64,000 bases of DNA, from positions 1-64,000 of the forward strand of contig MEDY01000035.1 in NCBI GenBank assembly GCA_001724265.1. The letters are read 5' to 3'. Shown here piece after piece: positions 1 to 58,683 of this stretch. Under the pieces are notes generated by a model. That model was not told where the DNA came from. It was given only the letters and a program-made list of their open reading frames with translations, and made no database searches. Each line of letters opens with the position of its first letter. Position 1 is the stretch's first letter. Both the position numbers and the translations under genes were made by a program. The DNA comes from Rhizaria sp. SCN 62-66. Lineage: Eukaryota.

Positions 1-1074
1 TCGTGTTTGTGCGCAAATGGTTAGCAATCTCACATTGTAGTTGCGCACTCTTCGACACCACCTGCCCCGTCCCTTCCGTTGGGGTTCTCAAAATATCATA
101 CCAAGCCTCCGATACAAGGGTGGTGTTTTCTGTGAACACACACAGAAGGATTCTGTCTTTAAAGTGTGTGTTTTCTGTCTTTAAAGTATATGTTATCAGC
201 ATATAATTCGAATTTATGTATTAAAATGCTTATTGATCACTTATCATTTGTTACACAAGAAACACCAATTTTGAACACAGAAACACCACCTTTGGACACA
301 CAGAGGGGAATACACCGTAGGCCGTCTTAGTCACCGTCTCACATGCTTTTTTATGTAAAATGTCGTGCGTCACATTAGCGTGTGTGCTCTGTTCGACCGA
401 TGTGATCATACGAGCATCTTCTGCTTCACGCGTTGGCAGTGTATTAATATAATATTATATGCATTTGAGCCTCAACTGATAATCAAGTTGAATCAAGCGC
501 AGCATCTTGTACATTCTTTTACGAAATTAATATTATCATGTGTTCTGTTGTGGACCGAATAAATCTTGATTTCATGACTCGAGCAGTGGCTTTGGTGAGG
601 TTTCGCTCGCTTGCAACTCGGAACGTAACTTCTGACGATAACTAAAGTGAGTCGAGATAGGCCACAGCAGCAGGCCGAACGTGAATTTTAACGGAATATA
701 GTAGATGTGTAGAATATCAGTTTTATGTAAAAACTACGACTTCATATGTCTTCATCCCATTGTGCTGTGTTTTAAATTGTTAAAGTCGGATTTTTTGTGG
801 TGTGACTAACCATGGTAACAATTGGTAGTTCGTTGCCTCCCCACGCGCCGCTTTAACAAACAGGTTTTTCATCATAACTCGTCATTTCTTTGCGCGTTTC
901 CAGGCTGAATTCTAGTACTAAATTGTATAAAATATTTTGATAATTGCACACAATTACAATTAAACCGATATTTATGGCGTGAATGTAACAATTACTTTTG
1001 GCCCTCTCAAGCGTCTCGTTTACCCTTTATTTGCGGACCTTCTTTGCCGTTTTGCTCCTTTCATATCAGCACTT

Positions 1075-2682
1075 ATGTCGTCAAGCCACAGCCAGGCGTG
1101 GAGGTGTCGTGCTTGCCAGACGTTGAACACGTCCGGGGTGCAGTGCCAGTCTTGCCCGGGCCGCCGTGCTTCGTTCAGCGTTGCTGCGGCCAGTCCGCTG
1201 GCAAACAGCAACAGCGGCAGCAACAGCGGCAGCCACGCGACGGCTGTGTCTCCCAGCGCGAGCAACATCAGCATGACCGAAGTCGTGAGGAAGGACCCGT
1301 CGGTGCCCGCGCTGCCGTCCATGCAGTACGACACGGACCTCCCGCCCGACTGGCAGCGCGTGTACGACCACTTCGGCCGCGAATACTACGTCAACCACAT
1401 CACGCAGGAAAGCCAGTGGGATCGCCCCCAGGCGCAGGCCCCTGTTGCCGCGCCCCTTGCCTTTCTGCGCCGCGCCAGCACGCATCTTTTTGTGCAGGCG
1501 CCGCCCTCGTACGAGGTCGCCGTGAGCGACGGCGGCGCGAACCCTGACGTCGGCTTCGGCGCCTAGTCTCAGGCCTCCGCGCACTCTCAGCAGCAGCAGC
1601 AGCAGCACGGCGGCTACCCACTCGACATGGAGCGCGTGCCCGTGCTGCCGGACGCCGTCCCTGAGGCCGTGGCGGACCCCTACGCCGCGGCCAACGCGGC
1701 CGATGAGGTGAACCCCGCTGAGCTGGGCCCCATCGCGGGCCGGCCGTTCGCACGCCGCAACCCCGACGAAGAGCCCAACTTCGGCGTCTTGCGCGCGCGC
1801 TCGTTCCGCGCCGAGCGTGACCTGCGCGGCAACTGCTGCAAGGTTATTTTTATTGATACGATGGGGCGTAACAAGGCGCTGTGTGTGTTCAGCATGCTCA
1901 TGTGGGGATTTTTCGCAGGTTTCTTCGCCATTTGGGCTGACCACGGCTTTAACGGCGCCGCGCTCGGCCTGTTCATCACATTCTGCGTCATCTACGGCAT
2001 CTTTTTCATCACTTTTGTCATGATTGGCGGCTGCTCCCCGCTCTGCATGGCGTGCTGCACCGTCTCCAGCAGCTGCTGCGTCAACGACTACGTCGTCGAG
2101 GCTGTGCAGGCCGAGGCCAGCTCCTCCGTCGACAACGTCCGCGGCTACCTCGCCGCGCTGCACGAGGCCACTCCGGAGCTTCGACTGCACGTCACGTGCT
2201 CGCACACCGTCTCCACGGGTTCGGGCAAGCGCCGCCGCACGCGCACCGTCGTCACGTACCGCGGCAGCAAGGTAATCGATCTCGTTTCGCACCGCGACCT
2301 GAGCGTCACGCCCGCCGTCTACGCCGCGGCCGTGGCGGCGGACCCGGCGTCGTACGCGTGCGTGACCTACGACCTTGAGTGGGATGGATCGGAGGAGACC
2401 AAGGCACGTGTCGAGCGCGAGAAGACACAGTACTACATGGATAACCGCCACCGTGACACGTCGTGCAGTGTCAGTCTCGTGTATTCGCTGGGGCCGGAGA
2501 GGCGCATGGTTGACGTGCTGTGCAAGGACGAGGGCTGTCGGTACTACCTCGCCAATTTCTTTATTAATCGTTGCTGTATGTATTTGGCCATGTACGCGTC
2601 GCTGTATCTGCCGTATATCTGCCTTTGGAAGTGCCTCGTGCGTCCTTTCCGTTACACAAACACCAAGTACATTGTTGTCTGA
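1075..2682 (+). CDS. RanBP2-type-like Zn finger + WW domain + TMEM151-like membrane protein; one gene read through an in-frame TAG at 1564-1566
   Basis: ATG 1075. WRCRACQTLN..CQSC Zn-finger-like motif, WW domain LPPDWQRVYDHFGREYYVNHITQESQWDRP, PPSY motif. TAG 1564 is followed in the same frame by SQASAHSQQQQQQHGG into ORF 1627-2682 (TM helices; ATPELRLHVTCSHT..RTVVTY..HRDLS resembles TMEM151). Ends TGA. The paralogue at 55767 has WW and TM regions in one uninterrupted ORF. Confidence 0.75.
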
Positions 2683-3005
2683 GTGCATACGCTGAACGCG
2701 ACTTAGTTTTCATCATGCTCCTTGTGCTCCACTATCATCAAGTATGTCGTTGTCTGAGTCATTTTACAACTTAGTGCAGCTAGGTTCGGTTGTTTGTGCA
2801 GCTGTGCAGTTTAATGCCGTGTAGTTAATTTAATGCAGTGTTGTGTTGTGTGGAGGTGCTGGTGCCTATGCCATGTAACACGGTGACTGTGATATGAAGA
2901 TGAGGCTTGATATGCCCGAGACGAGATTAGTAAAAGGTGCCACAACAACTTACATTAAGCGCACAGCAATCATGTCCGGCGTGTGTTGAGTTGTTTTTTT
3001 TTGTG

Positions 3006-3040
3006 TTTTTTTTTTTTTTTGTGTGTGTGTGTGTGTGTGT
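3006..3040. repeat. T15 followed by (GT)10 microsatellite
   Basis: Read directly: poly-T 3006-3020, GT x10 3021-3040, intergenic. Confidence 0.95.
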
Positions 3041-3537
3041 TTTTTGTTATCCGATGCTTACATGACGGTGCGGACGATAAAAGAATGTATACGTGTGTAC
3101 ATGCGTATCCGTCGTCTTGTATGAGCTAATTTAAATAGAGGATAGGCATCGAACTCGGTACTTCAACGAAACAATACAATTTTCCAATGTGATTTTATTT
3201 CTCACCCGCATTATGATAAAGTGAGTTCATAATTGTTGGATTTTGAGTTATATCTGCTTGCTTGATTGACTAGATAGATAACGACGCTGCTTTGCGCGAA
3301 ACAAAGCGGGTCTAGAAATGGCTAAATAAACTGGAGAAATGTGAAGAGTTCCATGTGCAGAGGCTGTCATAGGCTAGCTCCAAGTTGCAGCAACGCATGG
3401 CTGCATGTATGACAGCTGTCACATTGTCCATGACACTGCATTAACAGCCGTGAGAAAACTTCGTTGCAAAAAGTGTAATCGCAGGTGAGACCACACGTGC
3501 ATCTTAAGAGCCCTCTGTACAGAGTCAGAATTCTTCT

Positions 3538-4575
3538 TCACGCAATGCGCGTGCGCTTTGTGATCTGACCCGGCAACGCGCCCGCACCCACCGCCGCCAC
3601 ATCCGCGTATTCCTCGGCGGCAGCGCCTGTATTCGCGTTTCCGTCAGCCTTTGCCTTTGCCTTTGCCTGGGATTCCGCTTCCGCTTCTGCGGAGGCGTTG
3701 AAAGCGCGCATAGTCGCGATGACCGCAGCCTCAGCGGCCTCCGCGTCGGCGGCGTCCATGGCGGCGACCGCGGCCGCGGGCAGCGGCGCGCCCGCGGCGA
3801 CAGAGGCGGCGGCGGCAGAGGCGGCGGCGGCAGCGCCGGCGACTGCGGGGGCCGCCAAGGCTGCGGGTAGTGTGAGTGAGCGCTCGGCGCGCAAAGAGAG
3901 AGCGGAGCGCTCTTGCCGGTTGGCCAGGAAGTGAATGAAATCACCGGATGTCGTAAGAGTTTGGCGGAACTGGGGAAGTGTGAATTGGTGGGTCGAGAGG
4001 TGGAGCGAAGAGAGAGAGATGTGAGGGGGGAGTTGAGGACGAATGTGTGGTGTTGGGGATGCAATCTGCAACACAGAGGATGAGGAAGATTATATACATA
4101 TGAATTTACATATAGCAGGAAGATTGTTAAAGGCAACATGAGCAACAAAGAATCCCGTGAAATGAGCGAATATGCGCGACGTACCTCAGGAAGGAGAAGT
4201 TGCTCGAGGAAGTAGAGTCCGTCGATGTGTTGCACAAAACGCGCGTAGTCGGGACCACGGAAGTACTAGGATATATAGACAGCAGAAACAGCACAACAAG
4301 AGGAAACATAACAGTGAGAACAACATGAAGATACAATTGAAAGAGGGCACTTATTGACCAGGATGGCGAGGATAACGTACCTGAAGGTAGGTGATGTAGT
4401 TGAGGAAGGTCGGCTTATCAAGAACGCCCTTCTGAGCCAGGATGCAGAGGTACTGAGGACTGGCAAGCAGCTCAACAAACTCGAGATCCATGATGAAGCG
4501 CACGTTGTCGCAGTGAGCAACCTCGCGCAGGTCGTCGACCAACAAGGACTGGTTCGCCGCGCCACCGTCGTTCAT
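3538..4575 (-). CDS. MED31: Mediator subunit 31 (SOH1/MED31), 3 exons
   Basis: Exons 4575-4381, 4265-4185, 3969-3538. GTACGT..AG introns 4380-4266 and 4184-3970. Spliced product RFIMDLEFVELLASPQYLCILAQKGVLDKPTFLNYITYLQ|YFRGPDYARFV..YFLEQL..|FRQTL matches the MED31 signature. Stop TGA. Confidence 0.9.
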
Positions 4576-5112
4576 GATGAGTGTGTGGCTGACGAGCAAG
4601 GTGACTGCGCCCTGAATGATAATGAGAGTGCAAGGAAGTATGGTAAAGGTATAATAGAGTTAGCACAAGGGAAATACGAATTAGCACAAATAAAGACGAC
4701 TTAACGTTCAAGGCGCCGCGCAAGATGGTCGTGAATATGTTGGACGAACTATCGAGTCCGTGCTCACGGTCATCGGCTGGCGGGCAAAGTGTGCTGACGG
4801 TATCGAAAGAAACGCCCTGTTCCTGTGGCCTGCACACGAGTAGGATAGGGATTCTACGTGGTGCAGTATTACCAATGCACATGGCTGGACCTATGTTTTA
4901 ATTTGAAACATCGTCCTGGCGCCGCATATGTGTGCTTTCATGACCGGCTCAGAGGAGAGCAGGAGAGGAGGCACGAATCTTTCGCTGAGTCATTGTGACG
5001 GCTTTAACGCACGATGTGAACTGATCTAAGTTATGAAACACGCACATATAGCTAGACCCTTACGCCACACTTTGATTTCACTCTGTTTTGTTTTCATACC
5101 TGTTGCTTGTAG

Positions 5113-6096
5113 ATGCGTGTGGTCAGCCTTCTCGCCGTCTCGCTTGTCGGTCTGCTCGCGGGCGTGCAGGCGCACGAGTACGGCCCTTCACTGCCGCCGG
5201 CGCCGCAGATGAACCAGTTCCCGGGTCCTCAGAACGGTCCCCAGAACAACAACTGGAACTTCCGCTCTTGGCTGTCAAACGCGTTCAAGCGCACCCCCCA
5301 GAACGAGCTCAGCTGCAAGTACACTGACCCTGTCTCCGGGACCAACTTCGACCTCACCAAGGCGCGCAAGGCCCAGGGCGACTATAACGGCGCCGACATG
5401 CGCTTCCGCTACGCCATGAACTTCTGCGGACCCGCCAACACGCCTGGCCCCTGCGCGCTGCACAAGGGCTCGGTGTGCCAGTTCTCGACGCTGTCGGGCA
5501 GTTACGTCGCCAACCTCGGTTCGTGGTCAAACTCGCCCCCGCCGCAGTTCGCCGTGAGTGATAGCAACAACCCCTCTGCGGGGCTCACGCTGACGTACGC
5601 CAACGGCGACACGTGCTTTATCAATCGCGCCGTTATGCCGCGCAAGACGATCGTGCACCTTATGTGCGGCGACTCTGACGACACGAGCTTCACCATCAAC
5701 GAAATCCCCAATATGTGCACGTTCCATATCCGCTACCGCACCACCGCGGCCTGCGGACTGGGCTCCTCGGCCTCGGCCACGCTCATCAAGTTCCTCGTTA
5801 TCGTGCTCGTCGTCGCCGCTATTTACATCGCCGCCGGATGCTTCTACAACGTCCGTTTCCACGAGAAGAAGTGGGGCAAGCTCGACACGATCCCCAACTA
5901 CGACTTCTGGCTCGCCGTGCCCGGTTACGCGGGCGCCGCGGCGACCTGGTCCTACGAGACGGCCACGGAGCGCTGGCGCCAATGGCGCGGCAAGGACGGC
6001 GGCGACTACGCGCCCGTGGCCGGCAGTGAGGAGGATGCTGGTGGAGCCCCGCACTCGGCTGTTGACGACCACGACGGCGGCGTCGCCGACCTCTAA
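5113..6096 (+). CDS. Mannose-6-phosphate receptor / ATG27-like type I membrane protein
   Basis: Signal peptide, Cys-patterned MRH-like domain (YAMNFCG..C..GSVCQ; LTYANGDTC..IVHLMC..CTFHIRYRTTAAC), TM helix, then YIAAGCFYN..IPNYDFW typical of the CD-MPR/ATG27 tail. Stop TAA. Confidence 0.85.
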   Translation: MRVVSLLAVSLVGLLAGVQAHEYGPSLPPAPQMNQFPGPQNGPQNNNWNFRSWLSNAFKRTPQNELSCKYTDPVSGTNFDLTKARKAQGDYNGADMRFRYAMNFCGPANTPGPCALHKGSVCQFSTLSGSYVANLGSWSNSPPPQFAVSDSNNPSAGLTLTYANGDTCFINRAVMPRKTIVHLMCGDSDDTSFTINEIPNMCTFHIRYRTTAACGLGSSASATLIKFLVIVLVVAAIYIAAGCFYNVRFHEKKWGKLDTIPNYDFWLAVPGYAGAAATWSYETATERWRQWRGKDGGDYAPVAGSEEDAGGAPHSAVDDHDGGVADL

Positions 6097-6711
6097 GCGA
6101 AGCACAGCAACAGGCAAAAGCAGCGGTAACGATTTTAGATAGTCGATATGTACATATACAAGCGCGACGTTAAGAGAGATGTCGGTGCGGTGTTGATATG
6201 TGAGTGTCATGTTGTTGTTGCTGTTGTCAGCTTGCTTGCTTGATGTGTGACACAAGTTATATTGAGTGTTGCTTGCAGAAATTTAGTTTCTTTATGTTTT
6301 GTTGTTGTTTTTTTATTCTGATTATGTACATGTACAATAGTAAAACCAATACATAATCTTTCATTCTAGACAACAAACAAAACAATACTTGCTTCGTCTT
6401 TTGCTTGGTGCAGCGAACCCAAACTTGACAGTACATTATGATAAAGAGTCTCATAAAAAGCACTCAAAGTGACAGGCGTTGTATTAAATATATTCTTTTA
6501 CGAAACAAACGTATTTTCTCACTTATCTTGACATCTAGTCGCTTGCACAGGCATGCCTGTGTGTGATAATCACACACGCGTTGTTGTTTAAGCTTACTAT
6601 AACTTCCAGCCTCCTCTCCTGCTACTGCTTGCCCTCAAGCACACGCGCGCGCGCGCATCTCAGTCATCCTAGTTTGCGTGTTTGCGCTCAGTTTGCGTGT
6701 TTGCGCTGCAT

Positions 6712-8235
6712 TTACGCCTTGTAGGCGCCCTGCTTATCGAGCACGCGCATCTCCGCGATGGACTCACCGACAATCTCGGTCGCGAGATCGGCCTCGGCCT
6801 CGGTCATGTTGAACGAGGGCGTGAAGCGGAGCGCGTTCTTGCCACCGTGAATCACGCCGAGACCGTTGCGACGGCACAGCACCTCGAGCGAAAGCGGGTG
6901 GCCGTAAGCGCGCCACTGCGGGTGGAGGTGCGCCGCGACGATCAGCCCGGTGCCGGAGGTGGACTCGATGACGTCGGAGTTGTCCTTGCGGAGCGCCTCG
7001 AGGCGGCCCTTAAAGTAGTCGCCGATGTCGTTGATGTTCTTGCGGAGTTCGGGAGTCATCGAGTTGAGCACGGCCGTCGCGACATCGAGCGCGCGGGGGT
7101 TGGTGGTCATGGTGTTGCCGTAGAGGCCGCGGGAGTAGATCTCCTGCACGCGCGGGCCGAGGGCCAGCACTGACAGCGGGTACTGGCCGCCGTTGAGGGC
7201 CTTGGAGTAGGTCTCGAAGTCGGGCGCGGCGGCGTCCTGGAAGCCGGGGTAGTCCATGAGGGACAGCGTGCCGCGGGAGCGCATGCCGGCCTGGATCGAG
7301 TCGACGAGCAGGAGCGAGCGGTACTTGTCGGTCATCTCACGGGCGACATCGTAGAACTCGCGGGTGATCGCCAGACCGGGGTTGCCCTCGCCCATGACGG
7401 GCTCCATAAGCATGACCTCGACGTGGAGGCCCGCGGTCTCGATCTCGTCGAAGACGCGGCGCAGGTCGGCGACGTTGTTGGGCTCGACGGTGAACAGAGG
7501 GAGCTCGTTGTCCTTGTTGGAGAAGGACTTGAGATACTGGTCGTAGACGGAGCGGGTCGAGTCGGAAGCGTGCGCGGGACGCTCCGTGCGGCCGTGGAAA
7601 GAGCCCTTGAGCGAGACGAGGCAGGAGCGGCGGCCGTTGTGGGGTCCGCCCTTGGAGGTCATGCGCTTGGCGTCGATGTCGGCGATGCGCATGGCGAGGG
7701 ACACGGACTCGGAGCCAGAGTTGAGGCAGACAAACGACTCATAGGGGCAGACGCCGCCGCGCGTGTGGCCGATCTCGCGGCGGATGGCGGCGTTGAAGCG
7801 CATTTGCGAGAACGACGGGGTCATGACGTTGGCCACGACGTGGGGCTGAGCCAGAGCCTCCATGACCTGGGGCGGCGCGTGGCCGAGGCCAAGCATGCCG
7901 TAGCCGTCGGTGCAGTACACCGCGGCGCCAGTGTGAGTGACCATCCAGTTGCCCGCGCCGCCGATGGGGATGTAGGGGTTGACGGCGGTGGCGTCGTAGA
8001 ACTGCAGCAGGCCCTTCTGGACCTCGACCAGCGCGTCCTTCTCGTCCATCTTCATAACGGCGGGGAACTCGGTCACCAGCTTCGCGTGGGCCGCCTCGGC
8101 GCGCTCGCCGGCAAGGATGAGGTTCGGGTCGCTGGCGAACTTCTTGAGGAGCGTGTCAGAGACGCCCCGGGTCACGGTCTTGATGCCGGCGGACTTGGCG
8201 AACTGGCGCAGGGTGGTGAGCGACTTCTGAGACAT
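6712..8235 (-). CDS. Class-III PLP-dependent aminotransferase, L-lysine 6-aminotransferase-like (bacterial type)
   Basis: 507 aa intronless ORF. LNSGSES, SFHGRT, MEPVMGEG, LLVDSIQAG, TYSKALNGG (PLP lysine), GNTMTTNP, LRFTP. Stop TAA. Confidence 0.88.
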   Translation of the reverse strand: MSQKSLTTLRQFAKSAGIKTVTRGVSDTLLKKFASDPNLILAGERAEAAHAKLVTEFPAVMKMDEKDALVEVQKGLLQFYDATAVNPYIPIGGAGNWMVTHTGAAVYCTDGYGMLGLGHAPPQVMEALAQPHVVANVMTPSFSQMRFNAAIRREIGHTRGGVCPYESFVCLNSGSESVSLAMRIADIDAKRMTSKGGPHNGRRSCLVSLKGSFHGRTERPAHASDSTRSVYDQYLKSFSNKDNELPLFTVEPNNVADLRRVFDEIETAGLHVEVMLMEPVMGEGNPGLAITREFYDVAREMTDKYRSLLLVDSIQAGMRSRGTLSLMDYPGFQDAAAPDFETYSKALNGGQYPLSVLALGPRVQEIYSRGLYGNTMTTNPRALDVATAVLNSMTPELRKNINDIGDYFKGRLEALRKDNSDVIESTSGTGLIVAAHLHPQWRAYGHPLSLEVLCRRNGLGVIHGGKNALRFTPSFNMTEAEADLATEIVGESIAEMRVLDKQGAYKA

Positions 8236-9056
8236 CGGTAGGAACCTGCGTGCGGAAAAGAAAAGAAGAAAACGGGGAGTGTAAAGGGGGGTGAGTTGGA
8301 TGCAAGAAAAATATGAATTGTGGGAAAAGATGGGTTATGGGGACGAAAATTGCCGAATAAGGGGGAAAAGTGTGTCCCGGATTCGAGGTGTGGTGCGAGT
8401 TGAAGTTTAAATTCTTTTGATGATACGCAAAGGACCCGGGAGCAGGGAGTCCAAAAGAGCCTATTCTCCGTGGTATGTAGGCAATCACACTTTAGGAAAG
8501 TGTATCGCTCCATTATTCGCAGGGCGATGAACACGGGGCGGGGAAAAATGGATGACGCTCGATCTCGTCGCTCGGTCGAGGGATCCGAGAGATTTACGGC
8601 TTCGCCCCACGAATCCTGCGCTGCGACTGACACATTAATACCTCTATCCTCTCATAATGGGTATAAATCGCACTTTAGAGAAGGCGCTACACCACACCTT
8701 GACGGACGCTGGAGCTCAGGCGTTTGAAAGAAAGGTCCAACCCATTAACGTCTTGAACCCCGGTGTAAGTGGCCACCCTGCCCACGGTCACTGACCGTGA
8801 GCATGCCTCGAGGAGGGGGAACGCTATAAAAGTGCATTAATAATCGTTTTATTGATTCTAGATAAACACATAGCGCAGATATATCAACATGTTGAAGTTT
8901 TGTGTCGCATCTGCAATATCATAGAGATGCGTTTTACTAAACGCTCAAACTATAGTAAGTCTAAATAACAAAGCACGTTAGATATCCACAGATCTGATTT
9001 ATGAAGTCGACGCTTCAGGGCTCGGAGTTCCAGCTTCGTAGCTCCGACGCGATCGC

Positions 9057-12000
9057 TTAGTCGTTGTAAGCCAGCTTAAACGTCGGCATCATAACCTGTC
9101 CCGCCGGGGTAAGCACGACAGCGCCGCGCACAGTCACCGCAACATCAAACGGCGACAACGACAGTGAATGATCCCCTTTGATTCCGGTACAGCTATTGCG
9201 CACAGCTCCAAACCCGTCACGAGACTGTTGTTGTTGTTGCTGGGACTGTTGTTGCAGTGACTGAAGCGTCGCAGTGACTTGTTGATACAGCTGCTGCTGG
9301 TGCTGCTGCGACGGCGCCGGCGGAGGCGGATACAGCGGGCTTTGCGCCGGCAGCAGCATCGAGCCGACTGGCACCGCGCCCATGGCCACACGGTACACAG
9401 TCGCAGCCGTCCGGCCGGTACTTATGGGGGTACTCGTGGGGCTCCTAGTGCCGTCGCGCACGGCCCAGAGCTCAATCACGCCGCGCCTCGGCGCGAGCAA
9501 CAGCACGTGCAGCGCGTTCGAAGCCGTCTCAGCCTCAGTCATGGCCGCGATAGACTGCGCGACAGCCTGTGTAGAGGATGGCTGCAACACTGCGGAGGAG
9601 ATTTGGCGCACCGACTGCGAGTGTGACTGAAACTGCGGTTGTGACTGCGGCGTCGAGGTTGTTGACTGGAGGCAGCGGAAGTCAAGCGCTACCCAGGCCG
9701 CGCTGGCGTCTCGGAGCCCCTTCCACAGCCTCAGCAGCGTCGCCCCGCCGGCCGGCCCGCCCGCGCGCAGCAGAGCGGCGCGGCCTAAGCCGTCGGTCCA
9801 CACAGCGAACGGAGGCGGATTGCTGACGCTATCGCTATAGCTACAGCTGCTGTTGTGGGAGGCCGCTGCACCGCTGCGATTATGCTGGCGATGCGAGCTG
9901 CTGCCGCTGCCGCGGCTGCTGCTGCCGCGGCTGCTGTCGCCGATGCGACTGTCGCTGGACACGGAGGGGTACCGGGGCAGCAGCAGGCGCGCTGTAACCG
10001 AGCCCGGAAGAGGGACACCGACCGTCGCAGCGGAGACCGCGCCCCACCGAGCCCACATGGACCCATGAGTACCGTGCGTACCAGTATTCCCAGCAGTCCC
10101 ATGAGTTCCACTTGACCCATGAGTACCAGAAGTACCAGCGGTCCCGCCGCTAGAATAAGCCCCAATCACGCTCGCATCTCCAGCGTTCGCGAGAGCGCTC
10201 ACGCTCACGCTTGCGAGAGAGCTCAAGTTAGCGCTGACTAAGGAGTCTGCGAGTGGGCGCGCCGAGAGGACCGCAAACGCAGCAACCTGACCCAGCGCGG
10301 GCGCGGGCAACAGCGCAGTCACACGGCGCGGACCGTCGGCCAAAGCGCCGGCGCCCGCAGCGGCACACACGCGGGGGCGCGCTGCTGCGGAAGATGCAGC
10401 GCTCTGATTCTGACTCTGATTTTGACGCGAACGCGGTTGTATAGGTGGATGTTCATCACCCTCGTCGTCATCCTCCTCATCGTCCTCGTCGTCTTGGTCG
10501 TCATTCGCCTCGGTCTCGGCGTTCGCAGTCCCTGTCTCAGCTGTGGGGCTCGAGGGTGTCGCAGGAGTGCCCCAGAACGAGGTCCATAGCGCGCCCGCGA
10601 CCGTTGACGCCGCGCTGGCCGCGAGCGCGAGGCCCGCCCGCGCCGCGGCCCCGGCAGCCTCGCGCGCCCAATCGCGGTTCCGCATCCTCCTCCGCCGCCG
10701 CTGGGGCCGCGGCTGCTACAGACCGTGAATGTGAGCGCCGTGGCCGTGGGCGCTATAACTGTGGGACGGGTGGCTGCTGCTGCTGTGGGGTAAATCTGGG
10801 GCGGTCCAGTCGCTGTGCTCGACTGGCAAAGCGACTGTGTGAGAGGGACGACTCACAGTCGCTGTCCCCGTCTTGATTGCAGTCCGAGAGCAGGATGACC
10901 CAGTGACCGTGTTGGTGACTGTGAGCAGCGAGGGGGCAGTGCCGGCGACGACCAACGCAGGCGGAGCGTTGTCGGGCCAAACCCCCGCCACCGCCGCCCC
11001 TGTGCTTGCAGCAGCAGCAGCAGGACTTGAAGACATGGATTCAGGGTTATACTCATGACGTTGGCCTTCTTGCTGCTGCTGCTGCTGCTGCTGCTGATGT
11101 TGTTGTTGTTGTTGTTGTTGTTGCTCAGAGTGTAGCCCGAGCTCTGCCAAGAACGCGTCTCGCGAGGGCGCGAGCGGCACAGGCGGCGCCGCGACAGCCG
11201 CCGCGGCCACCGCGCCCGCTTCCTCTTGGGCAGAGCGGCTGAGCGGCGTCGGCAGCAGCGTGACGCGCGCGCCGGTCAGCGGGAGCCTCGCCACCGCGTC
11301 GGGTGAGCGGGCGCCGGGGACGCCAACCAGCGCGGAGAGCGCGGAGTGACAATGGGCGGACAGGGCCCGCAGGGGCAGCGCGGTGACTGCGCGCGGCTGA
11401 GTCAGCAGCAACACACCGTCGCCGCCACCGCAGTCATCGCCGTCGCCACTGAGTGACTCCGACGGCTGCAGCCGCGACCGCGACTGCAACCGTGACCGTG
11501 GGTCTGTCGTCGTCGTCGTCGTCGTGGCTGTTGTGGCTGTTGCGGCAGGGTGGGAAATTGAGGGCGCGGGGCGCAGGGGCCGGGAGCGAACTGGCGCGGC
11601 GAGAGACAGGCCGCGCACGGGGCCCGCTAATGCAATGCGTGCAGTCTCACTTACGGCAGCCAGAGCCGCCCTCGCAGTCTAAGCGTCGTCGCCGTCGCCA
11701 GTCTCCGCGAGGTCGGTGCTCAAGTCGGAGACGGAGGCGGAGGCTTCAGTGAGTGCGGTGGCCGAGACTGCGGTGACGGCGAGGGGGTCGACAACGAGCA
11801 GCCGCCCGCGGGAGGTGCCCAGGAGCAGAACACTGTGCGTCGCCCGCAGCACATCACCCCCCGGCGCGGATGCCGCCGCTGAGGCTGATGCTGAGGCTGA
11901 GGCCGAACCACAGGCGGAGCGCGCGGCGGCAATGGCGGCGGCGACGGCGGCGGGCGGCGCGAGCGCGAGCGCGGGCGCAGGCACAGGCGCGGCGTGCACC

Positions 12001-12575
12001 GGGATCCACAGCGCTGACGTCACCGCCTCAACACTTGCAACAGCAGCAGCAGCGGCAGCAGCAGCAGCAGCAGCACCACCACCACCACCACCGCCACCAC
12101 CAGCGCCAGTTACCGATAGTAGAGAGATGGGGGATGGAGCGGGGACCTGTGAGGGGTCGAGGCGGGCGAGAAGGTCGGGCAGCGTCACGCGGAGCGTCTC
12201 AAAGGGGCCCTGCGCGGGATTGTGGCGGGGTCCAACCCCGCCGCCGAGCTCGAAGCATCCGGGACACATCAGCGCGCGCCGCGCGGGGCGGATGAGCCAC
12301 AGGGACGCGCCTTGGGCGACGGCAACGCAGCAGAGGTCGGGCGTCGCGGCGACCACGCAGCCGGCGAGCGGAGACGCGGCCTCGAGTAACGATGCAGAGG
12401 CTGCAGCAGCGGCCGAGGTTGCACCGGAGGCTGGGGAGGCGTCGGGTGGTGATGATAGAGCGGCGAGGGAAGCGACGACCCCGGCGAGCAAAGGAGGCGG
12501 GTGCTGACGCCAGTCGGGGCCGCCAAACGCGAAGTCGACGGGTGAGAGCGTGATCAGCCCCGCGGTGGCGTCCAT
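9057..12575 (-). CDS. RAB3GAP2: Rab3 GTPase-activating protein non-catalytic subunit (RAB3GAP2 N-terminal domain)-like; read through two in-frame TAGs (11679-11681, 10716-10718)
   Basis: Three consecutive ORFs in one frame separated only by single TAGs. LLLGTSRGRLLV in the first segment; WTDGLGRAALL..LRLWKGLRDASAAWV..LLLAPRRGVIELW in the last (family motif RMWKGYRDAQ..APRRGxxEVW). First ATG 12575, stop TAA 9057-9059. Confidence 0.8.
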
Positions 12576-12969
12576 GCGTGGCTGTGGAGCGGGGCTGAGG
12601 CGAGGAAGAGCGTCAAGCACGGGCGGGGTCAAGATAAGATTCGGTTCGAGGGGTTAACTCTGTGGTGGAGCAACAGCAACAAACTAAAATAGAGATGCAT
12701 GCAGCAGGGTGTCCGTCAGTGGGAGTATTATAAATGAGAAATATACGTATTCGTAAAATGATATATGTATATAAATAAGTACACGCTTGAGACGATGGGA
12801 AACTCGGCTGGCGCCGAAATTAACATTAGCCTCAACCCGCCTCTCGGTCGTTGCACTGGCCACAAACAAGTTTCCTCCACATGACATTATAAATGTTCCT
12901 TCTACGTTTAAAAGTGGGGTTATATAGCAAAAACAAGTTTTATATCCTAATCGATGGCTATCGTCTCAA

Positions 12970-16719: not shown

Positions 16720-17109
16720 GGAAAAGTGTTGTTACAACCAAAGCCAAGGCGAAAACAAGGCAAAGCTAAACGAGGGAAGGCGCAAGGTATTTATATTTAT
16801 AAAATATGATTGTTGAGTTGGTAGCGAGCTGCTCCGATGAAAAAACTAATATTAAGCTGTATTGAGGCATCGTAGTGGCCTGATTATGGCCCTGTTATTC
16901 AACAAATGCATTATCCAATCAATCAATACACATATCACATATCTTGTGAAATATCACCCTACTTAACAATAAAGATCGCACTGACTGACGAGGTGATGAG
17001 CCCATGAATCACTATATATGTACACGTACATAAGGACTTGACAAAGCGAAGAGTATTATTCGCTAGTGCCTGCATATGCGTGCATCCAGTTCTCAAACAG
17101 TGAAACACT

Positions 17110-17758
17110 TCAGTGGTCGGCGAGGTCAATCTCTGACTTGTTGTCCTCAACGAGCGAGAGCCTGAGGCGCTCGAGCTTGACCTGGAGCTCGGGTACGATG
17201 GCGACGATGAGCCCGCGGTTGACGCCGAGAGAGGCGACGAACGTGATGATGAGGGGGAGGTGCGCAACGTGCATGACAAGGTAGTCCTCGTAGAGCGTCG
17301 TGATGGTCGAGTTGGTGCCCAGCCCGAGCTTGCTGGCCATGCCCGTGGTCGTCGCGAAGACGACCGAGCCCGGGTCCGTGGCCAGCACGGGGGCCTGGTT
17401 GTGCGAGTACCCTTGTGTGTCTGTGAGCTCGATCTGCACGGGGAAGAGCGGGACGTGGTGGGGCGTGTCCTGGCGCATCACGCGCGAGTAGACGGCACCT
17501 TCAGAGTCGCTGATCACGATGCCGTACAGACCCTCCGTCCTGAGGGATAAGCATGAGTCGCAGAAGGGTGTGAGTGAGAGAGAGAAGCAATGAAAGAAAC
17601 TAGAAGTGAGTGCAGGGAAGCCGTGGTGCAAGGTATGAAACTATGAAGCAATATTGTGGTATTTCCCATAGATAGCAGCGTGGATATTCGACGTACCGGC
17701 CAATAACCTTTTCGAGTGAGGTGTTGATGGTCTCCGAAGTGACGGGATTAGCAGCCAT
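17110..17758 (-). CDS. LAMTOR3: Ragulator subunit LAMTOR3 (MP1)-like, 2 exons
   Basis: Exons 17758-17697 and 17539-17110, GTACGT..CAG intron 17696-17540. EGLYGIVISDSEG..FATTTGMASKLGLGTNSTI..LPLIITFVAS..NRGLI matches LAMTOR3. Stop TGA. Confidence 0.88.
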
Positions 17759-19011
17759 GCGGTAGAGCCCTGGGGAAACAGAAGAGGCGATTATGCGATG
17801 AGAGTGCATTTTTAGAAGGATTAATTTACTAGTGGAGTCGAATACATGCTTTAAACAGTGAATATATCTAATACATCTCATTTTTACGATCGGGTCATTC
17901 TGCAGTCACTCTGAAAGTATAGGTGTCGACGAGCCCTTGCTTCAGTGGTGAAGCCGTAGACGCAGCGTGCAACTTGTGGTTACGCTGAAGAAATCATAAG
18001 ATAGAACGCAAAGGATAGAGTGTTTCGGCATCAAAAACCTAGTGTCATGATACAAACAAATCTAACAGACTTGTAGACATGTGCTGAATGCATAATATTA
18101 GGATACAGTACGTGTATTACGAGGGGAAAAGACAAATAAGTTTCAGAGATCGTCTGGTCACAACACGACGAATTCGGACCTGCAGGTTTGCGGTTAAAGT
18201 CAAGAAAAATTGGCGAAAAAAGTAAAGATATATCAGGTTATTACCACCGATTATACACTCAAGCGTGCATGAAGAACGACGATGACGACAGCAACAAATC
18301 GTTATTTTTTGGGCAAGGAAACAGAAAAATAGGAGAGGAGGGGCTACATAACAGACGAGGGACTGTGTGGTGAGGGGGCAGCGGGCCACAAACGGCAGCA
18401 GTGGACGCGGTGGACTGGGTGGGACTGTGCGTTAAGAGGTTTATATATAACGCGCGTCACACAGCACCGCGCCGTATCGCTGTCACTGGTGGGACCGCGC
18501 CGCCACCACACGCCCTGTATCGCTCGTTGCTCGCCGCAGTGCAGTGTGATCTTCGTGAAATCACAGTGTGTTTGTGTGTGTGAGAGAGAGTGGGATGAAC
18601 GGGCGAGCGAGAGAGAGGGAAGAAAAAAGAATAGTCGATACGAATCGAAACAAACGAGTCACGATTATTTTAGTGGATTTAGGTGTGGAGATCGATAAGA
18701 AAACTACGAGTGTTATATATGAGTCTGTGGCAGTGAGAGTTTTGCGTCGGTTCACACAATCACTCTATCACGAACGCAAGTACACTGCACAAAGACAGAA
18801 CAGACATACAAACACAGAGCAAAACAAAGACCACGCATAACGTCGAATCTCTCAATATCGGCAGAGGTCTAACAAAATGCTGATCGCATCCTTGCAATTG
18901 CGAAAAACGTGTTTCAGCTAGCTGACTTCTAATGAGAGCGTGAGCGCGAGGCCCGCGAACATGTTGTCCGCACAGACTGAGGCACAACATGGAGCAAACC
19001 CGACGCGTCGC

Positions 19012-20223: not shown

Positions 20224-20839
20224 TCTGGCCGACGGTCCCTTTACAATGAATACAAAGAGGTGAGGCAAATAGATAGCGGGGGAGTGGTGAGAAGGTGTGA
20301 GGTAATTTGATGCAAAGCAAGGAGATATCGTGCAGTATTCAGGATTCCCGGCGCAAGATAAGAGACAATTTAGAAGTATGCATCGGAAGACGGCTCAGAG
20401 GGCGACAATAAGCGTCCATTGGCGTCGCTGCAGCACAAAAGCAGAGCAGTGAGCGAAAGCGGAGACGAGGCAAGGACGCGGCTAATCCGGTCATGCACGC
20501 AAAAACCGACGTCAGACGCTAAAATAACATCATAACGGAATGGACAAAAGACCAATTTACAATGTGGCAAATCCCGTAGTCTTCCTCCGATTTTGGACGG
20601 GCGGGCTGGTCGCATTTCAATTCCGCGGTCCACCCATTTTCGCTTGGTCGGCTCAAAGAAATGCATTCTGTCCCTTTTTTGCGAACCGCGTGAGGTCAAC
20701 ATCGCGATTTGTGGTCAGCGTTTGAGCTCATTAGATTTCTCTGTCTACGATCCGTTGTTTGAAGGTGTGCGCAGTGTGACTAACTGTACTTACCATTTTT
20801 TGTTTAATCTCATTTTATTTTTGTGACAGGGTGTCCAGA

Positions 20840-31915: not shown

Positions 31916-32495
31916 GGTAAGTGGGTGTCTCGCTGAACGCTGATCAAGAACCTTGCTGGGTCGCCCAAGAGGCAAGCGGGTAAGGTGTGAGCAAAGGAAG
32001 GACTGAGGGTGAATTTGGCGCACGGGTTCTGGGATATATGAGAGGGCTGTAGGGTTTAAAACAAAATATATAATACGTCGTAGTCGATAAAATGTGTTGC
32101 CTTTGTTTTATCATCAGATGACGGACTCCTCGATAACTGCATGCTATAACGGATCCCGATTCGAAAGCGTTGATCGGTGCTCAGTCGCGGTCGCTGCCGT
32201 GGCCCAAAAACGGTTACTTTTGGTCTCAATTTCAAAGTCTTGGTACAGTCTATTGGATCCCTGCCATCAAGATTTGGCAACGTATTTGAATGGTACTCTT
32301 TGAAATATTTTATGTATGTAAATTGCAATTTACTCAATTTTGATCTCCGTTTTCTGCGTCTATCCCTGATTTCCTCTTCCACACTGCCCAGTCGCAGTCG
32401 AGCTTCAACGCTTGCTTTTTGATCCGCTTGCCCAGAGGACACGCCTAGTCAGCTAAAGGAGTTCGGTGGACCTTTTTCCCAAAGGTTGAGTACCC

Positions 32496-35228: not shown

Positions 35229-35664
35229 TCAGGTGAGTGACCTCACTCTCTCTCGTGCGTCTGCTGAATACACAAGACTTCATTGTTGCATCTCAATACT
35301 GATGTGGCTTAGGATCATTCGTGTATTCTTTCGTTGGTGGTGAGTCGATTACATGGATTTGATATGTAACAATTACATTTTGTCGAACTAGTGGTGCGGT
35401 TGAGCTCGTCATGTTCACTGCGACCACTGAAACACAGAAGTATAGCACGAAGAAACAAGACAAGGAAACGAAAAAGCAAAAGCTGGCAATAAGTGACAAA
35501 AACAGAACAAGAGACAAATGAGAGAACGGAAAGAATAACAATAATAAATTTAGTGATTGTTAGTTGAATAATTCGTCGTTAATGACTCGTTTATAACAAA
35601 AAACGTAATGAGAGTGAGTCTTCAAATTAGAGTGCGTTACAGCGCGCATGGACATTATTTATAC

Positions 35665-42261: not shown

Positions 42262-42959
42262 GAAAGAAAGTTAGACTAAGGCCAAGATGGCCAGGGGTAA
42301 ATTCGCCAATAGGGTTCAGTGTTCAACAGGATATCCTGAACCGGGAGCTGGAATTCCGGTGCAAACGCTCTGAGAAGGTCGAAACCAAGGAGATTCGCAT
42401 GGCGACATGGGGAAACATTGAGTTATGAGGCAAGATATCGGCGGTGTAGCATACAAAATTCAAATCTAGTTAATAAACACTAACATGCTAGCGTATCAAC
42501 TACGGCTGCATCACCTGACGAGTCCATGTACAAGAAATTGTCGCTGTGCAAACGTCGTGTGCAGACCATCTTCGGTCAGATTGTGGCTTGCGCCTCGTCG
42601 CTCCGAGAGTGTTGTCGCAATGATGCATTTCACGCTGCAAAGCGCGGATATATGCAAACTTCAAGAGACATAGTGCGTTAGCAAGCGGCAATTCATCCAG
42701 AATTTCCGTTATCCGTAGTAAAAACAACCCGACGTGTGTATTAAGTCCGATATCGGGATATTAAGATAGGATTCTAGGTATCATAACAGATGCGCCAGTC
42801 ATGCTTGCCGCGCCACTCTGGCCCCACAGCAGTTGCGAGCGCTTCACAAAACGCACGCAAACAGAAGGACTATATATAAGTATCGCAAATATTTAAAAAA
42901 AATATACTCTCATTCATCACGCATATAGCGCGCATGAAAGCGAAGCGGGATCTTCCGCT

Positions 42960-43805: not shown

Positions 43806-44367
43806 GATGAGTGCTGTAACGCGTGAAAGTAGTCAGAGAGATAAAGATAAGCGTTGAAGACAGCTTGGGGATCGTTTGGGAAAAGTGGTGAAAGAACACG
43901 GAAAGCCAGTCAGACGAGCGGTCACTTATGCAGGTGGATGAAGGCCAAGCACGATTCGGATTCAAATAGTTTCTTGGTATCAATCAACTCAGCAAATCAC
44001 ATAGATGGAATTGCGCTGTCATTCTTAATAGACGGACTTAGTCGTGTTATCCAACGCTGTAAAGTTGACCTTCGTTGTGCGGCGGCTTGACTTCCTCCGG
44101 TCAACCTAGCCCCTCTCAAGAGGGAGCAGATTTTTTTAATGTTACATCGAATTCCGAGCGACATTGCCCGCAGAGTACACTGTTTTGCAGTGTATCTTGG
44201 CATTTCATATGTTATTTGCTCTTCATTTTAGTTAAATCCCGAGTCTGTGTGAAATAGCCTCATGCCGCCTCCTTTCTAACGCACCGTCCACAAACACGAA
44301 TCTGCTTTCCCCCCGACTTGAAATCTGACCTCGGCCACCATTTTCTCGTTTCCACCGCAGCTCTGCA

Positions 44368-51378: not shown

Positions 51379-51863
51379 GCTCAGCCGTCTGGTTAAAAGT
51401 AAGGATATCGAGGCATAAACAATTTGTGGGAATACATAAAAGAATTCAATGGTAGATCTTTCAAAATATTCTTAAGAAATAACAATGATAATACTATTAA
51501 CGGACGATGCCATGCATCTTGACTGAGCGATTCACAGCTGCTGCGCCATCGTCTGCGCGCGAACCGCAGTCTCCGACCATCACCACGAAAGCGTGTCTCA
51601 AGTTGTCAGAACAGTCACGTCTTTCTCATGCTGAAAGCTGTTTTAGCTGCTCTTGTTACCTGTAAAGCTTTTGAGTAAATTATGATCGGCTTGTTTATTG
51701 ACCCGGATCCCAATCATTCACAGACTTTAGACCTACATCAACGTCGAACAATCACAACTGTCAGCTGCGGTAGTGGACATACATTTTCCTTAAAATATTA
51801 TCAAATTCCCCCGTCGCTTTGCCCTGCGCGCTGCCCGTTGCCTTCACGCTGTGCGCGCGGCTC

Positions 51864-54259: not shown

Positions 54260-54545
54260 AGTGATAGGAGACTATAAGCGAAGAAACTGGACGGAAGAAG
54301 CAAAACAAACATCGAAAAAATGTCAATGAATCCAAATATTGCACAATCAGCTCCTAAGACAATCCGACTAAGTCACAATACGTCACATAACTTTGCAGTT
54401 TGCCTACTTCGACCGGTAACTTTGACGAGCATATCTCAGAGATTCAGTCAAAGCTTGAGTGTTGTGTAAAATGCATTGGAAATAAAATGTCGTGAATACA
54501 ATGCTACTACAAGTAGTACCTCGTTAATGAGGTTTTCACTTCATC

Positions 54546-54599
54546 TAACACATTTTGTTTGACGAGGACCAGTTGGTCCTCGTCAAACAAAATGTGTTA
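54546..54599. repeat. Perfect 26-bp inverted repeat with 2-nt spacer
   Basis: TAACACATTTTGTTTGACGAGGACCA (54546-54571) - GT - TGGTCCTCGTCAAACAAAATGTGTTA (54574-54599), exact reverse complements. Confidence 0.97.
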
Positions 54600-55766
54600 A
54601 TTCTCTGGACTCACGTCACCACGACGAGAGAGGTTCACAAAAAATCGACGCAATCAACTGAGAACCGGTTGATAACATCAAGAATTAGCCATAGAAATGC
54701 AGTTTTATGACAAATAATATAGTCGTCAGTATGAAAATAAGTTTAGTTTTGACAAAGGCTTTTGCTCTAACCCTAATAACCATCATATTGTATAACTGTT
54801 CAGCCATATACTACACTTTGATGAGTGTCTGTGCTACTTTAAGTCATCATGTGCGAAAATAATTTTTATTATGGAGTTCGTTTGCTATACTGTGACAGAA
54901 ATGTAACTTTTTTGTCTCGATCGTAAAAAGTCCTGGAGTAACTGACTTATAAACTCGATAGTGCGTCGATAGGCGGCTTAAAGATGAGAAAAAGCGTGGC
55001 ATACAAGGTGAAATTCGTCATACAATTGCATATTGGTTGGTGTATTATACAAGCATAACCCATGTGTTCAAGCGCTGATATTGCAATTTTTTGAAGAGAA
55101 ACCAAGATATAGGCGCACGAATCACGCCCACTTGTATGCGCAACGCAACTCTGGTCACGTGTGAAGTTTGAAGTAGATATCTCTGCGTAAACAAAGATTT
55201 GTGAAGTCAATTTTGAATGGAAGATGCTTTATTAATCACTAGATTTGAATCCTGATTTATAGTTGATATGTCTTTTTGACAGACTTGAAAATCATTTTAG
55301 GCGATAAAAAATCGGATCGTCAGAAATCAGAAAGAGTTCCGCGGTCATCACAGCCACCAGAAGTTTCACCATGCGACGTGACCTGTGGCAGTGTGGCTGG
55401 AGAGGCGGGCTGTTTACAAGTGCACGGCATAAAATTCATCGTGAAGTAGGAAACTACGAAGATTCTACGAACATTCAAGAGATATTCAACACAGATATAT
55501 TTGTACACGTGCGCCTTCTGCCTTCTGTTATGAACATGTATCAGGCAAAGTTGACGAGATGGGAAGGGAGGCTGGCCGTTGCGTTCGGCTTGCTTCTTCC
55601 CGGGGGAATGGGAAAGACCCGCGTCGCGTTTATTTGGAACTGTGTTATAACTTGAAGAAACTGCTTGAACACGTGTTTTTACATTGTATTTATTGCACCT
55701 TACTCACCCTGCCAACCAAAAACATATTTTTCCCGCGCCCTCGCACCGCAGACCAGACCTCTCTCG

Positions 55767-57737: not shown

Positions 57738-58407
57738 ACACAGCGCAATACCTCACTTTATCAACCTCGCGCGACATGGTCCGCTTTCTGGGCCCGTTCT
57801 TAGCTTACAGCACGAGATACGCCGTCCGGAACGCTGCGTTTGACGCCGCTTCGCGGGGGCAGGAACTCTTGTGACACGTGAGGAACCAGCCGTCAGAAAT
57901 GGAACAATAGTATGATCTATAGCATGTTTTTGCGACAACGAGCCAGCGAGATAGTTTTAAACTTGCTTAAATAAAGTTGTTTGTGTTTATCCAGCCCTCG
58001 GGAGGCTCATTTGACACGCAGCTGCCTTGTTCTCTGCTTCTCACCACAAACGATGCGAGTTTAGACCCATGAAGGCGGTCGAAGAGTCGGACATTCTCTG
58101 AGAGGCTCGAACGCTGGTTCTGAATCCGTCGTGCCGCTTGCGGGCGCATCAGCTGCATGGTATACACGAGTATAATCTAATTTTTAATTTCATATTGCGC
58201 GAGTCGCACATCTACTCTGTTCCCGGAGGGTGCAATCAAGGCACCCGCGCCCTGCCAAATGCAACTTCACAAGGCTTCTTCAAAATGAGTACCACACAAT
58301 TGTTTTGCATCCTATGCGAAAGATGCAACAACAGCACACTAGAAAGGCGTCTTATCTTACCATTAACTTTCTTTTATTTTCATTACACTTGCCCTTTTCT
58401 CTCCAGC

Positions 58408-58683
58408 ATGTCTGCTGAGCGCACTCCGCTCTCGCCGTCGTCAGGCTCCTCGCAGGCCGCACGACTCGCGCTCGGAGCCCCTGTGTCTGCAGCAGACTCT
58501 TCCTCCGCCGGCCCGACGCCATACGCGGGCATGCCGCTGGACAGAGCGCCGCAGCTCGCCATGTCTCTCGACGACGACGTCTCGATGACATCTCCGCCGC
58601 CCTCGCTGGCGATGTTGTCACCACCGAGCACGCTGCAGCGTACACGCACCTTCACAAGCCCGCCATCGTCTTCCTACGCACAT

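Follow-up and report, generated by a model that had tools for sequence, protein, structure and literature searches.

Why should sequences that resemble splice acceptors lie directly in front of the start codons of genes that mostly contain no introns? This question is raised by a 64,000-nt stretch of DNA from Rhizaria sp. SCN 62-66 (contig MEDY01000035.1, assembly GCA_001724265.1), which was analyzed at its full length and is referred to here as the window. A preliminary description of the window had noted a pyrimidine-rich tract followed by AG upstream of 13 start codons and had proposed that these are acceptors for spliced-leader (SL) trans-splicing, in which the 5′ part of the transcript (the outron) is replaced by a leader from a separately encoded SL RNA. 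SL trans-splicing has a patchy distribution among eukaryotes, and neither how it originated nor what role it plays outside operons has been settled. We regard it as the best reading of the upstream acceptors in the window; it is not proven, and our confidence in it only slightly exceeds our doubt.

An acceptor-like signal marks the start codons

Rereading of the sequence, printed in register, gave the previously listed AG-to-ATG distances at all 13 genes. The same signal was found at four further genes, namely 12575(−), 32496(+), 42261(−) and, weakly, 31915(−), so that 12970(+) was the only one of 18 starts that lacked it. TATAAAT-like boxes were seen upstream of this signal-less gene, at ~12727 and ~12767. 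Each start was scored by the AG at most 45 nt upstream that had the most pyrimidines in the preceding 20 nt, and a threshold of at least 75% pyrimidines was applied. On the sense strand, 12 of the 18 gene starts reached this threshold, compared to 0/18 on the antisense strand of the same start windows and 2/16 for sense-strand windows 30 to 77 nt behind stop codons. Sets of 18 random intergenic windows passed it 0.87 times on average and at most 6 times, and none of 2,000 resamplings reached 12.

The base before the AG was C at 13 of the 17 sites, T at two and A at two, and never G. When the first purine pair after the best pyrimidine run was recorded for the 18 starts, AG was found nine times, AA four times, GA twice and GG once, with no pair in the two remaining cases. 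The 150 nt before the AG held 28 upstream ATGs (30.4 expected from base composition); this count near expectation indicates that the stretch before the AG is not under the constraint of a scanned leader or 5′ untranslated region (UTR). No pyrimidine tract plus AG was present at internal ATGs behind in-frame TAG codons (10685, 1627 and 49482), which argues that the signal marks true gene starts.

The upstream sites resemble intron acceptors and show no enrichment of donors

The window is gene dense and eukaryotic, with about 20 genes, the majority of which are single-exon, as the preliminary description had remarked. Seven internal introns, located by reading the sequence, lie in four genes (two each in the WW paralogue, MED31 and the last part of MCM10, and one in LAMTOR3). 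All seven begin with the donor GT[ACG]CGT, represented by GTACGT in five introns and by GTCCGT and GTGCGT in one each. Lengths were measured for three of them, the first (131 nt) and second (211 nt) introns of the WW paralogue and the LAMTOR3 intron (157 nt). For the WW paralogue pair, splicing was checked by frame and by comparison of the paralogues: removal of both introns restores the frame, and the spliced product aligns with the paralogue, gene 1075. A branch point was discernible by eye only as a loose CTNAY in the seven introns and was not used to discriminate sites. The strict donor is typical of intron-poor genomes, and strong 5′ splice sites are described as being kept in intron-poor lineages in the accessible part of PMC2483917.

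The upstream sites had been said to look like the acceptors of true introns, and comparison of the 17 sites with the seven introns bore this out for the tract profile, the base before the AG and the AG-free zone. The pyrimidine fraction in the last three 10-nt bins was 0.70, 0.76 and 0.75 at the upstream sites and 0.71, 0.77 and 0.70 at the intron ends. The base before the AG was C at four intron ends and T at three, G being absent as it is upstream of the start codons. The previous AG lay at least 47 nt back at 16 of the 17 sites and 60 to 144 nt back in the introns.

Donors were scanned for with the motif GTNCGT. As noted earlier, none was present within 600 nt upstream of QNG1-like, RhoGAP and NCA2-like, and GTCCGT occurs upstream of M6PR-like (357 nt from the acceptor) and of the aminotransferase (462 nt). 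Nine of the 17 sites had no GTNCGT within up to 600 nt (12575, LAMTOR3, CK1, QNG1-like, 32496, RhoGAP, 54259, the WW paralogue and NCA2-like). The upstream stretches contained 11 copies in 8,809 nt on the sense strand (1.25 per kb) and 12 on the antisense strand (1.36 per kb), and all intergenic DNA, both strands counted, contained 25 in 26,684 nt (0.94 per kb). In these sequence features the upstream sites behave as acceptors without donors, as outrons would, and the earlier interpretation is in part supported. Since intron-poor lineages keep strong 5′ splice sites, the missing donors argue against cis introns as the general explanation.

RNA contigs part from the genome at two predicted acceptors

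Public sequencing runs that hold the stretch comprised two from wastewater described as an "RNA-Seq cDNA" library (X1 and X2; word shares of 0.38 and 0.37), two of polyA RNA from activated sludge (X3 and X5; 0.10 and 0.00) and one whose library is not on record (X4; 0.89). The runs are available as contigs, and those of X1, X3, X4 and X5 were aligned to positions 4300 to 24299 of the window. All 13 aligned contigs of X5 fit only partly, which made this run uninformative on the organism. Gaps in the cover of X3 or X1 were not counted as evidence unless a contig end or the DNA-like run is named with them. X4 behaves as DNA: all 30 bins have depth, and one of its contigs is colinear over 20200 to 21127, across the CK1 and QNG1-like sites. 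X1 behaves as RNA: its depth was ~14 over the aminotransferase and 0 over the intergenic bin 8302 to 8968, where X4 reached 6.3, and it was also 0 over 15639 to 17639.

One X1 contig (record 1; 1,772 nt, depth 13.8, 0 mismatches) fits 6503..8247, that is, from 209 nt behind the stop codon of the aminotransferase gene to the A of the predicted AG. Past this AG it carries 27 letters that, among the joints listed, were placed nowhere in 4300 to 24299. This range includes the whole upstream spacer of the gene and the GTCCGT at 8707, and joints with sides of 20 to 32 letters do appear among those listed, none of them from 8247. Judged by this joint detection, the added letters of the aminotransferase transcript are not encoded just upstream, which speaks for trans rather than long-range cis joining. 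A second X1 contig, record 7 with a length of 391 nt, terminates at precisely the A of the CK1 AG (20240). Colinearity thus stops exactly at the predicted AG at both predicted sites for which an X1 contig end was listed. Both contigs match through the AG itself, which is what an added exon with AG at its own 3′ end would produce. Transcript 5′ ends that run colinearly through the AG, or that join a local upstream exon, had been named beforehand as outcomes that would refute trans-splicing. The data contradict a colinear 5′ UTR at both genes that were judged, the aminotransferase and CK1, and, for the aminotransferase, a local upstream exon joined in cis as well.

A further X1 contig (356 nt, depth 8.6) covers noncoding sequence at 18221 to 18560, between LAMTOR3 and the 3′ end of CK1, without a match in Rfam. 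Its end coincides with a (TG)n(AG)n repeat, and an X4 contig departs from the window there for 607 letters. This contig may represent a long CK1 3′ UTR (~790 nt) or a separate noncoding transcript.

Spliced-leader trans-splicing and its alternatives

If SL trans-splicing takes place, most of the sites would be the 3′ splice sites of outrons. Each gene would be transcribed singly from a start some hundred bases upstream, and the spliceosome would take the pyrimidine tract and the first AG after it. The upstream piece would be discarded, and a leader of ~29 nt or more, ending in AG, would be joined from a separately encoded SL RNA; the 27 unmatched letters and the two of the AG are compatible with such a length. 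The leader would supply the cap and most of the 5′ UTR, which would explain why the acceptors lie 0 to 19 nt from the ATG. In a smaller set of genes, made up of MCM10 and MED31 and perhaps also of SSU72, gene 1075 and the gene at 31915, the acceptor may instead belong to an ordinary 5′ UTR intron.

What the data show is a signal that is specific for true gene starts and resembles intron acceptors, donors that are not enriched upstream of it, and RNA contigs that break from the genome at two of the predicted AGs. That one common leader is added, and that an SL RNA gene exists, is what we infer. These are also the parts of the original proposal that did not materialize in the data, since neither a common leader nor an SL RNA gene in the window was found. 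No SL RNA gene was detected by Rfam or tRNA-scan matches in the 64-kb window, and intergenic [GT]AG followed by GT[ACG]CGT did not occur there. Among 12 looser [GT]AGGT[AG] sites in the window, the regular-expression scan found none that was SL-RNA-like and no Sm-site candidate. As the search covered 64 kb, absence from the window says little about the genome.

These negative results weigh against SL trans-splicing, as do several properties of the RNA data. No leader common to two genes was seen, and the 27 letters may come from a sequencing adapter or reflect a chimera. Nothing extends the CK1 contig beyond its AG, and only two gene starts could be judged from RNA. The mapping program labeled X1 as "RNA? 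(probably DNA)," and 30 of 51 X1 contigs fit partly, with 0.78 of the aligned material diverging, so that unmatched tails are common. In X3, a low-depth colinear contig at 4779 to 5068, between MED31 and M6PR-like, stops 43 nt short of the M6PR-like AG, and a second colinear contig at 12721 to 13131 (411 nt, depth 3) enters gene 12970. Such X3 contigs could stem from pre-mRNA or from carried-over DNA, or could represent a first exon of MED31. Also unfavorable is the presence of GTNCGT upstream of eight of the 17 sites, at an intron-like spacing for MCM10 (117 nt), MED31 (138 nt), SSU72 (224 nt) and gene 1075 (242 nt). Among relatives, SL trans-splicing is given as not found in Bigelowiella, Plasmodiophora and Reticulomyxa in the accessible part of PMC6053224, and SL genes are given as putatively absent from the heterotrophic Paulinella ovalis in that of PMC9311404. 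As a separate observation, gene 12970 is the only start with an RNA-library contig that is colinear from the spacer into the reading frame, and it is also the lone start without the signal.

The contig ends could alternatively represent transcription starts at the A of the AG. The tract would then be a direction-specific core promoter, comparable to the Y patch, a pyrimidine core-promoter element of plants; CA would be the initiator, the 5′ UTRs would measure 2 to 21 nt, and the 27 letters would come from a library adapter, read through where a fragment has a fixed end. This would account for the fit of both X1 contigs up to and including the A (8247 and 20240), the CK1 contig simply ending there, for the C that precedes the A at 13 of the 17 sites, as in Y-R initiators, and for the lack of X1 cover over 8302 to 8968. 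However, all of the chosen sites have G after the A, and AG is the first purine pair at 9 of the 18 starts, while an initiator needs no such G, and the tract profile and AG-free zone match those of intron acceptors. Leaders of 2 to 3 nt at M6PR-like, NCA2-like and the aminotransferase of a related metagenome contig (L002, described below) would moreover need near-leaderless translation, which to our knowledge is known only from Giardia, Trichomonas, Entamoeba and microsporidia. By reasoning on the 31-letter word graph that was left unchecked, an adapter tail should comprise ~30 letters (13 if unstranded) and not 27. The X3 RNA-library contigs upstream of AGs also speak against transcription starts at these positions, although this is a weak point. 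We therefore consider transcription starts an improbable explanation.

Ordinary cis-spliced 5′ UTR introns would place a short noncoding first exon near each gene, with the acceptor before the ATG as the intron end. The eight genes with GTNCGT within 600 nt upstream fit this idea, and the spacing in MCM10 (G+C of 0.28) and MED31 is close to the 131 to 211 nt of the measured introns. There is also a 98-nt candidate intron further upstream of the gene at 31915, and the X3 contig at 4779 to 5068 covers the would-be first exon of MED31. As a general rule, however, cis introns are unlikely: the donor is not enriched on the sense strand over the antisense strand and is missing at nine of the 17 genes, though all seven introns use it. 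For the aminotransferase, the 27 letters were placed nowhere in the aligned range and no joint from 8247 was among those listed; splicing from the donor at 8707 would leave an exon with GC and not AG at its 3′ end, whereas the contig matches through the AG. A cis intron is plausible for MCM10 and MED31. Finally, the tracts might have no function at the RNA level and reflect a pyrimidine-rich compositional or translational context with an AG by chance, given that the earlier AGs were picked by eye and that the first purines must fall somewhere before the ATG. With no intergenic resampling reaching the observed count, with a signal confined to the sense strand and with RNA contigs that break from the genome at both of the predicted AGs that were judged, we attach hardly any weight to this explanation.

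In-frame TAG codons

Four TAG codons lie in frame in three genes (Table 1), and coding-like sequence goes on in frame past each of them. The product of the WW gene 1075..2682 aligns with the WW paralogue over its full length, across the TAG. None of the ~17 gene ends that were read uses TAG as a terminator (all are TGA or TAA), and the five longest genes contain no in-frame TAG. All four codons are located in low-complexity sequence, and the encoded residue can therefore not be told from the window. The codon might have a rare sense meaning or act as a leaky, read-through stop. In the sainouroid rhizarian exLh, UAG encodes leucine (accessible part of PMC5304391).

Placement of the organism and related sequences

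The closest named relative of the aminotransferase was an MMETSP entry with a cercozoan taxid (62% identity), and that of the DRC11/IQCA-like protein was Plasmodiophora brassicae (37%). In a quick maximum-likelihood tree of this single gene (27 proteins picked of 76 found), the DRC11/IQCA-like protein of the window fell into a clade with Plasmodiophora and Bigelowiella (Shimodaira-Hasegawa-like approximate likelihood ratio test support of 100), apart from stramenopiles, alveolates, chytrids and green algae. The single-gene tree suggests that the organism belongs to the Rhizaria. Rosculus vilicus was ruled out as the source of the DNA, since its genome has a G+C of 37.7% (PMC10770858) compared to 52 to 73% in the window. 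A homologue search with CK1 gave no taxonomic signal. The DRC11/IQCA-like gene (32496-35228, plus strand) encodes an AAA protein that in named relatives is a component of the dynein regulatory complex, and its presence suggests that the organism builds a motile flagellum.

A search of metagenomes with the aminotransferase returned three loci (L001, L002 and L003), none of which is a transcript. L002 is part of a 233-kb metagenome contig of a relative (67% protein identity in the aminotransferase, G+C of 0.48 to 0.58) and shows no synteny to the window around the aminotransferase over its positions 1 to 11888. Both readable starts on L002 are preceded by a pyrimidine tract plus AG, at 0 and 18 nt before the ATG, and GTACGT donors are present, one of them at ~5236. 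L003, a public metagenome contig, is 100% identical to window positions 3171 to 6910, which places the same strain in another data set. L001 is 52% identical to the aminotransferase and is probably bacterial. A leader translated as an N-terminal extension was looked for in database proteins and dismissed: 18 of 18 relatives start at M and share no extension.

A tentative overall picture, which we offer as possible rather than probable, is that of a free-living, probably heterotrophic rhizarian, common in wastewater, with a compact, intron-poor genome in which almost every gene, transcribed on its own, receives a trans-spliced leader of ~29 nt; this organism may also read TAG as a rare sense codon.

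Features of the window

The sites, intron donors and in-frame TAG codons are compiled in Table 1. G+C ranges from 52 to 73% across the window, with 0.7 to 0.9 at third coding positions, and the spacers, which measure 390 to 1500 nt, are A+T-rich. Operon-like gene pairs were not seen in the window and strands alternate, so that the earlier remark that a leader would not serve to resolve polycistrons is correct for this window. Matches to Pfam domains agree with the gene names given before: WW, CIMR/ATG27 (M6PR-like), Q_salvage (QNG1-like), Ssu72, RhoGAP, MCM10_OB, NCA2, Med31 and MAPKK1_Int (LAMTOR3). A perfect inverted repeat of 26 nt with a 2-nt loop is located at 54546 to 54599, within an A+T-rich spacer that is unusually long (~1.5 kb) and separates gene 54259 from the WW paralogue.

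Table 1. Predicted acceptor sites, intron donors and in-frame TAG codons in the window (Y, pyrimidine fraction)
Feature	Position	Strand	Description	Remarks
WW-domain gene 1075, site	1040..1069	+	Pyrimidine tract + AG 1068-1069, 5 nt before ATG	Y 0.80; GTTCGT 242 nt upstream
MED31, site	4589..4642	−	Strong AG 4612-4613, 36 nt before ATG 4575; second AG 4589-4590, 13 nt (listed earlier)	GTTCGT 138 nt upstream, hence possible 5′ UTR cis intron
M6PR-like, site	5082..5112	+	Pyrimidine tract + TAG, AG 5111-5112, 0 nt before ATG 5113	
Aminotransferase, site	8246..8277	−	Pyrimidine tract + CAG, AG 8246-8247, 10 nt before ATG 8235	X1 contig break
RAB3GAP2-like, site	12595..12626	−	Pyrimidine tract + CAG, AG 12595-12596, 19 nt before ATG 12575	Y 0.80; absent from earlier list
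LAMTOR3, site	17770..17800	−	Pyrimidine tract + CAG, AG 17770-17771, 11 nt before ATG 17758	No GTNCGT within 600 nt
CK1, site	20239..20270	−	Pyrimidine tract + AAG, AG 20239-20240, 15 nt before ATG 20223	X1 contig end
QNG1-like, site	20775..20829	+	TGACTAAC branch-like site, T-rich tract, CAG; AG 20828-20829, 10 nt before ATG 20840	No GTNCGT upstream
DRC11/IQCA-like AAA gene, site	32460..32484	+	Short pyrimidine tract + AAG, AG 32483-32484, 11 nt before ATG 32496	Y 0.65; absent from earlier list
DENN-domain gene, site	42276..42305	−	TAG, AG 42276-42277, 14 nt before ATG 42261	Y 0.75
SSU72, site	43814..43850	−	Pyrimidine tract + CAG, AG 43814-43815, 8 nt before ATG 43805	GTCCGT 224 nt upstream
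RhoGAP, site	44320..44360	+	Pyrimidine tract + CAG, AG 44359-44360, 7 nt before ATG 44368	No GTNCGT upstream
MCM10, site	51389..51505	−	CAG, AG 51389-51390, 10 nt before ATG 51378; GTCCGT at 51505, 117 nt upstream, G+C 0.28	Candidate ordinary 5′ UTR intron
Gene 54259, site	54272..54315	−	TAG, AG 54272-54273 (12 nt); CAG, AG 54287-54288 (27 nt)	Y 0.85
WW paralogue, site	55720..55751	+	Pyrimidine tract + CAG, AG 55750-55751, 15 nt before ATG 55767	
NCA2-like, site	58355..58406	+	Long pyrimidine tract + CAG, AG 58405-58406, 1 nt before ATG 58408	No GTNCGT upstream
WW paralogue, intron donors	56912, 57314	+	GT[ACG]CGT	
LAMTOR3, intron donor	17696	−	GT[ACG]CGT	
MED31, intron donors	4380, 4184	−	GT[ACG]CGT	
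MCM10, intron donors	47645, 47431	−	GT[ACG]CGT	
WW gene 1075..2682, in-frame TAG	1564-1566	+		
RAB3GAP2-like gene 12575..9057, in-frame TAGs	11679-11681, 10716-10718	−		
MCM10, in-frame TAG	49684-49686	−		

Significance and comparison with known systems

In Paulinella, SL trans-splicing has been proposed to have arisen with endosymbiosis, helping to activate transferred genes (accessible parts of PMC9311404 and PMC6053224). In the literature covered, most subscription journals lying outside this coverage, reports of SL trans-splicing in Rhizaria were found for Paulinella alone. Should SL trans-splicing be confirmed for the window, it could not be viewed as having been invented by photosynthetic Paulinella in connection with endosymbiosis but would be older within the Rhizaria or have arisen again, and the endosymbiosis idea could be tested in a second, heterotrophic, gene-dense and intron-poor rhizarian lineage, one that would apply the process to almost all of its monocistronic genes. 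With its small genome, the organism would also lend itself to asking why trans-splicing acts on single genes. Gene callers and 5′ UTR models applied to it and its relatives should allow for an acceptor beside the ATG and possibly for in-frame TAG codons.

Several known systems share features with the window. Initiator and Y-patch promoters, like the promoters of genes with short 5′ UTRs in Giardia and Trichomonas, have a pyrimidine-rich, directional element that ends in C-A near the ATG; however, they have no AG requirement, do not mimic intron ends and do not lead to a nongenomic 5′ extension. In kinetoplastids, a long pyrimidine tract and the first AG set the site and cis introns are few, as in the window, whereas kinetoplastid genes form long same-strand polycistrons. 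Neighboring genes in the window are often divergent, and cis introns with a strict donor occur in four of them. The SL1 system of Caenorhabditis elegans also places a donor-less acceptor bases before the ATG in most genes, monocistronic ones included, with a leader that supplies nearly the whole 5′ UTR, as is proposed here. C. elegans differs in being an animal with operons and SL2, and operon-like pairs are not seen in the window; no homology is implied.

The closest comparison is with Paulinella (Euglyphida), which, as the tree suggests for the organism studied here, is a rhizarian. The following statements on it rest on the accessible parts of PMC6053224 and, for its genomes, PMC9311404. 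Experiments have demonstrated the leader, the SL RNA genes and the joining in trans for Paulinella, whereas the case in the window consists of predicted acceptors and contig breaks. For Paulinella calmodulin, RT-PCR that paired a primer in the leader with primers in the gene was run on cDNA and on genomic DNA (PMC6053224). Paulinella genomes are huge, repeat-rich and intron-rich (PMC9311404), in contrast to the compact and intron-poor genome of the window. In the leader of Paulinella, a T-rich stretch is followed by a terminal G (PMC6053224); the piece added here must end in AG. SL trans-splicing in Paulinella micropora and P. chromatophora uses a leader of 28 to 33 nt (PMC6053224), compared to 27 unmatched letters plus AG in our case. 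As in the window, the genomic copies of its target genes carry an acceptor AG with a pyrimidine-rich region and no SL sequence, and the targets are monocistronic genes of all functions (PMC6053224).

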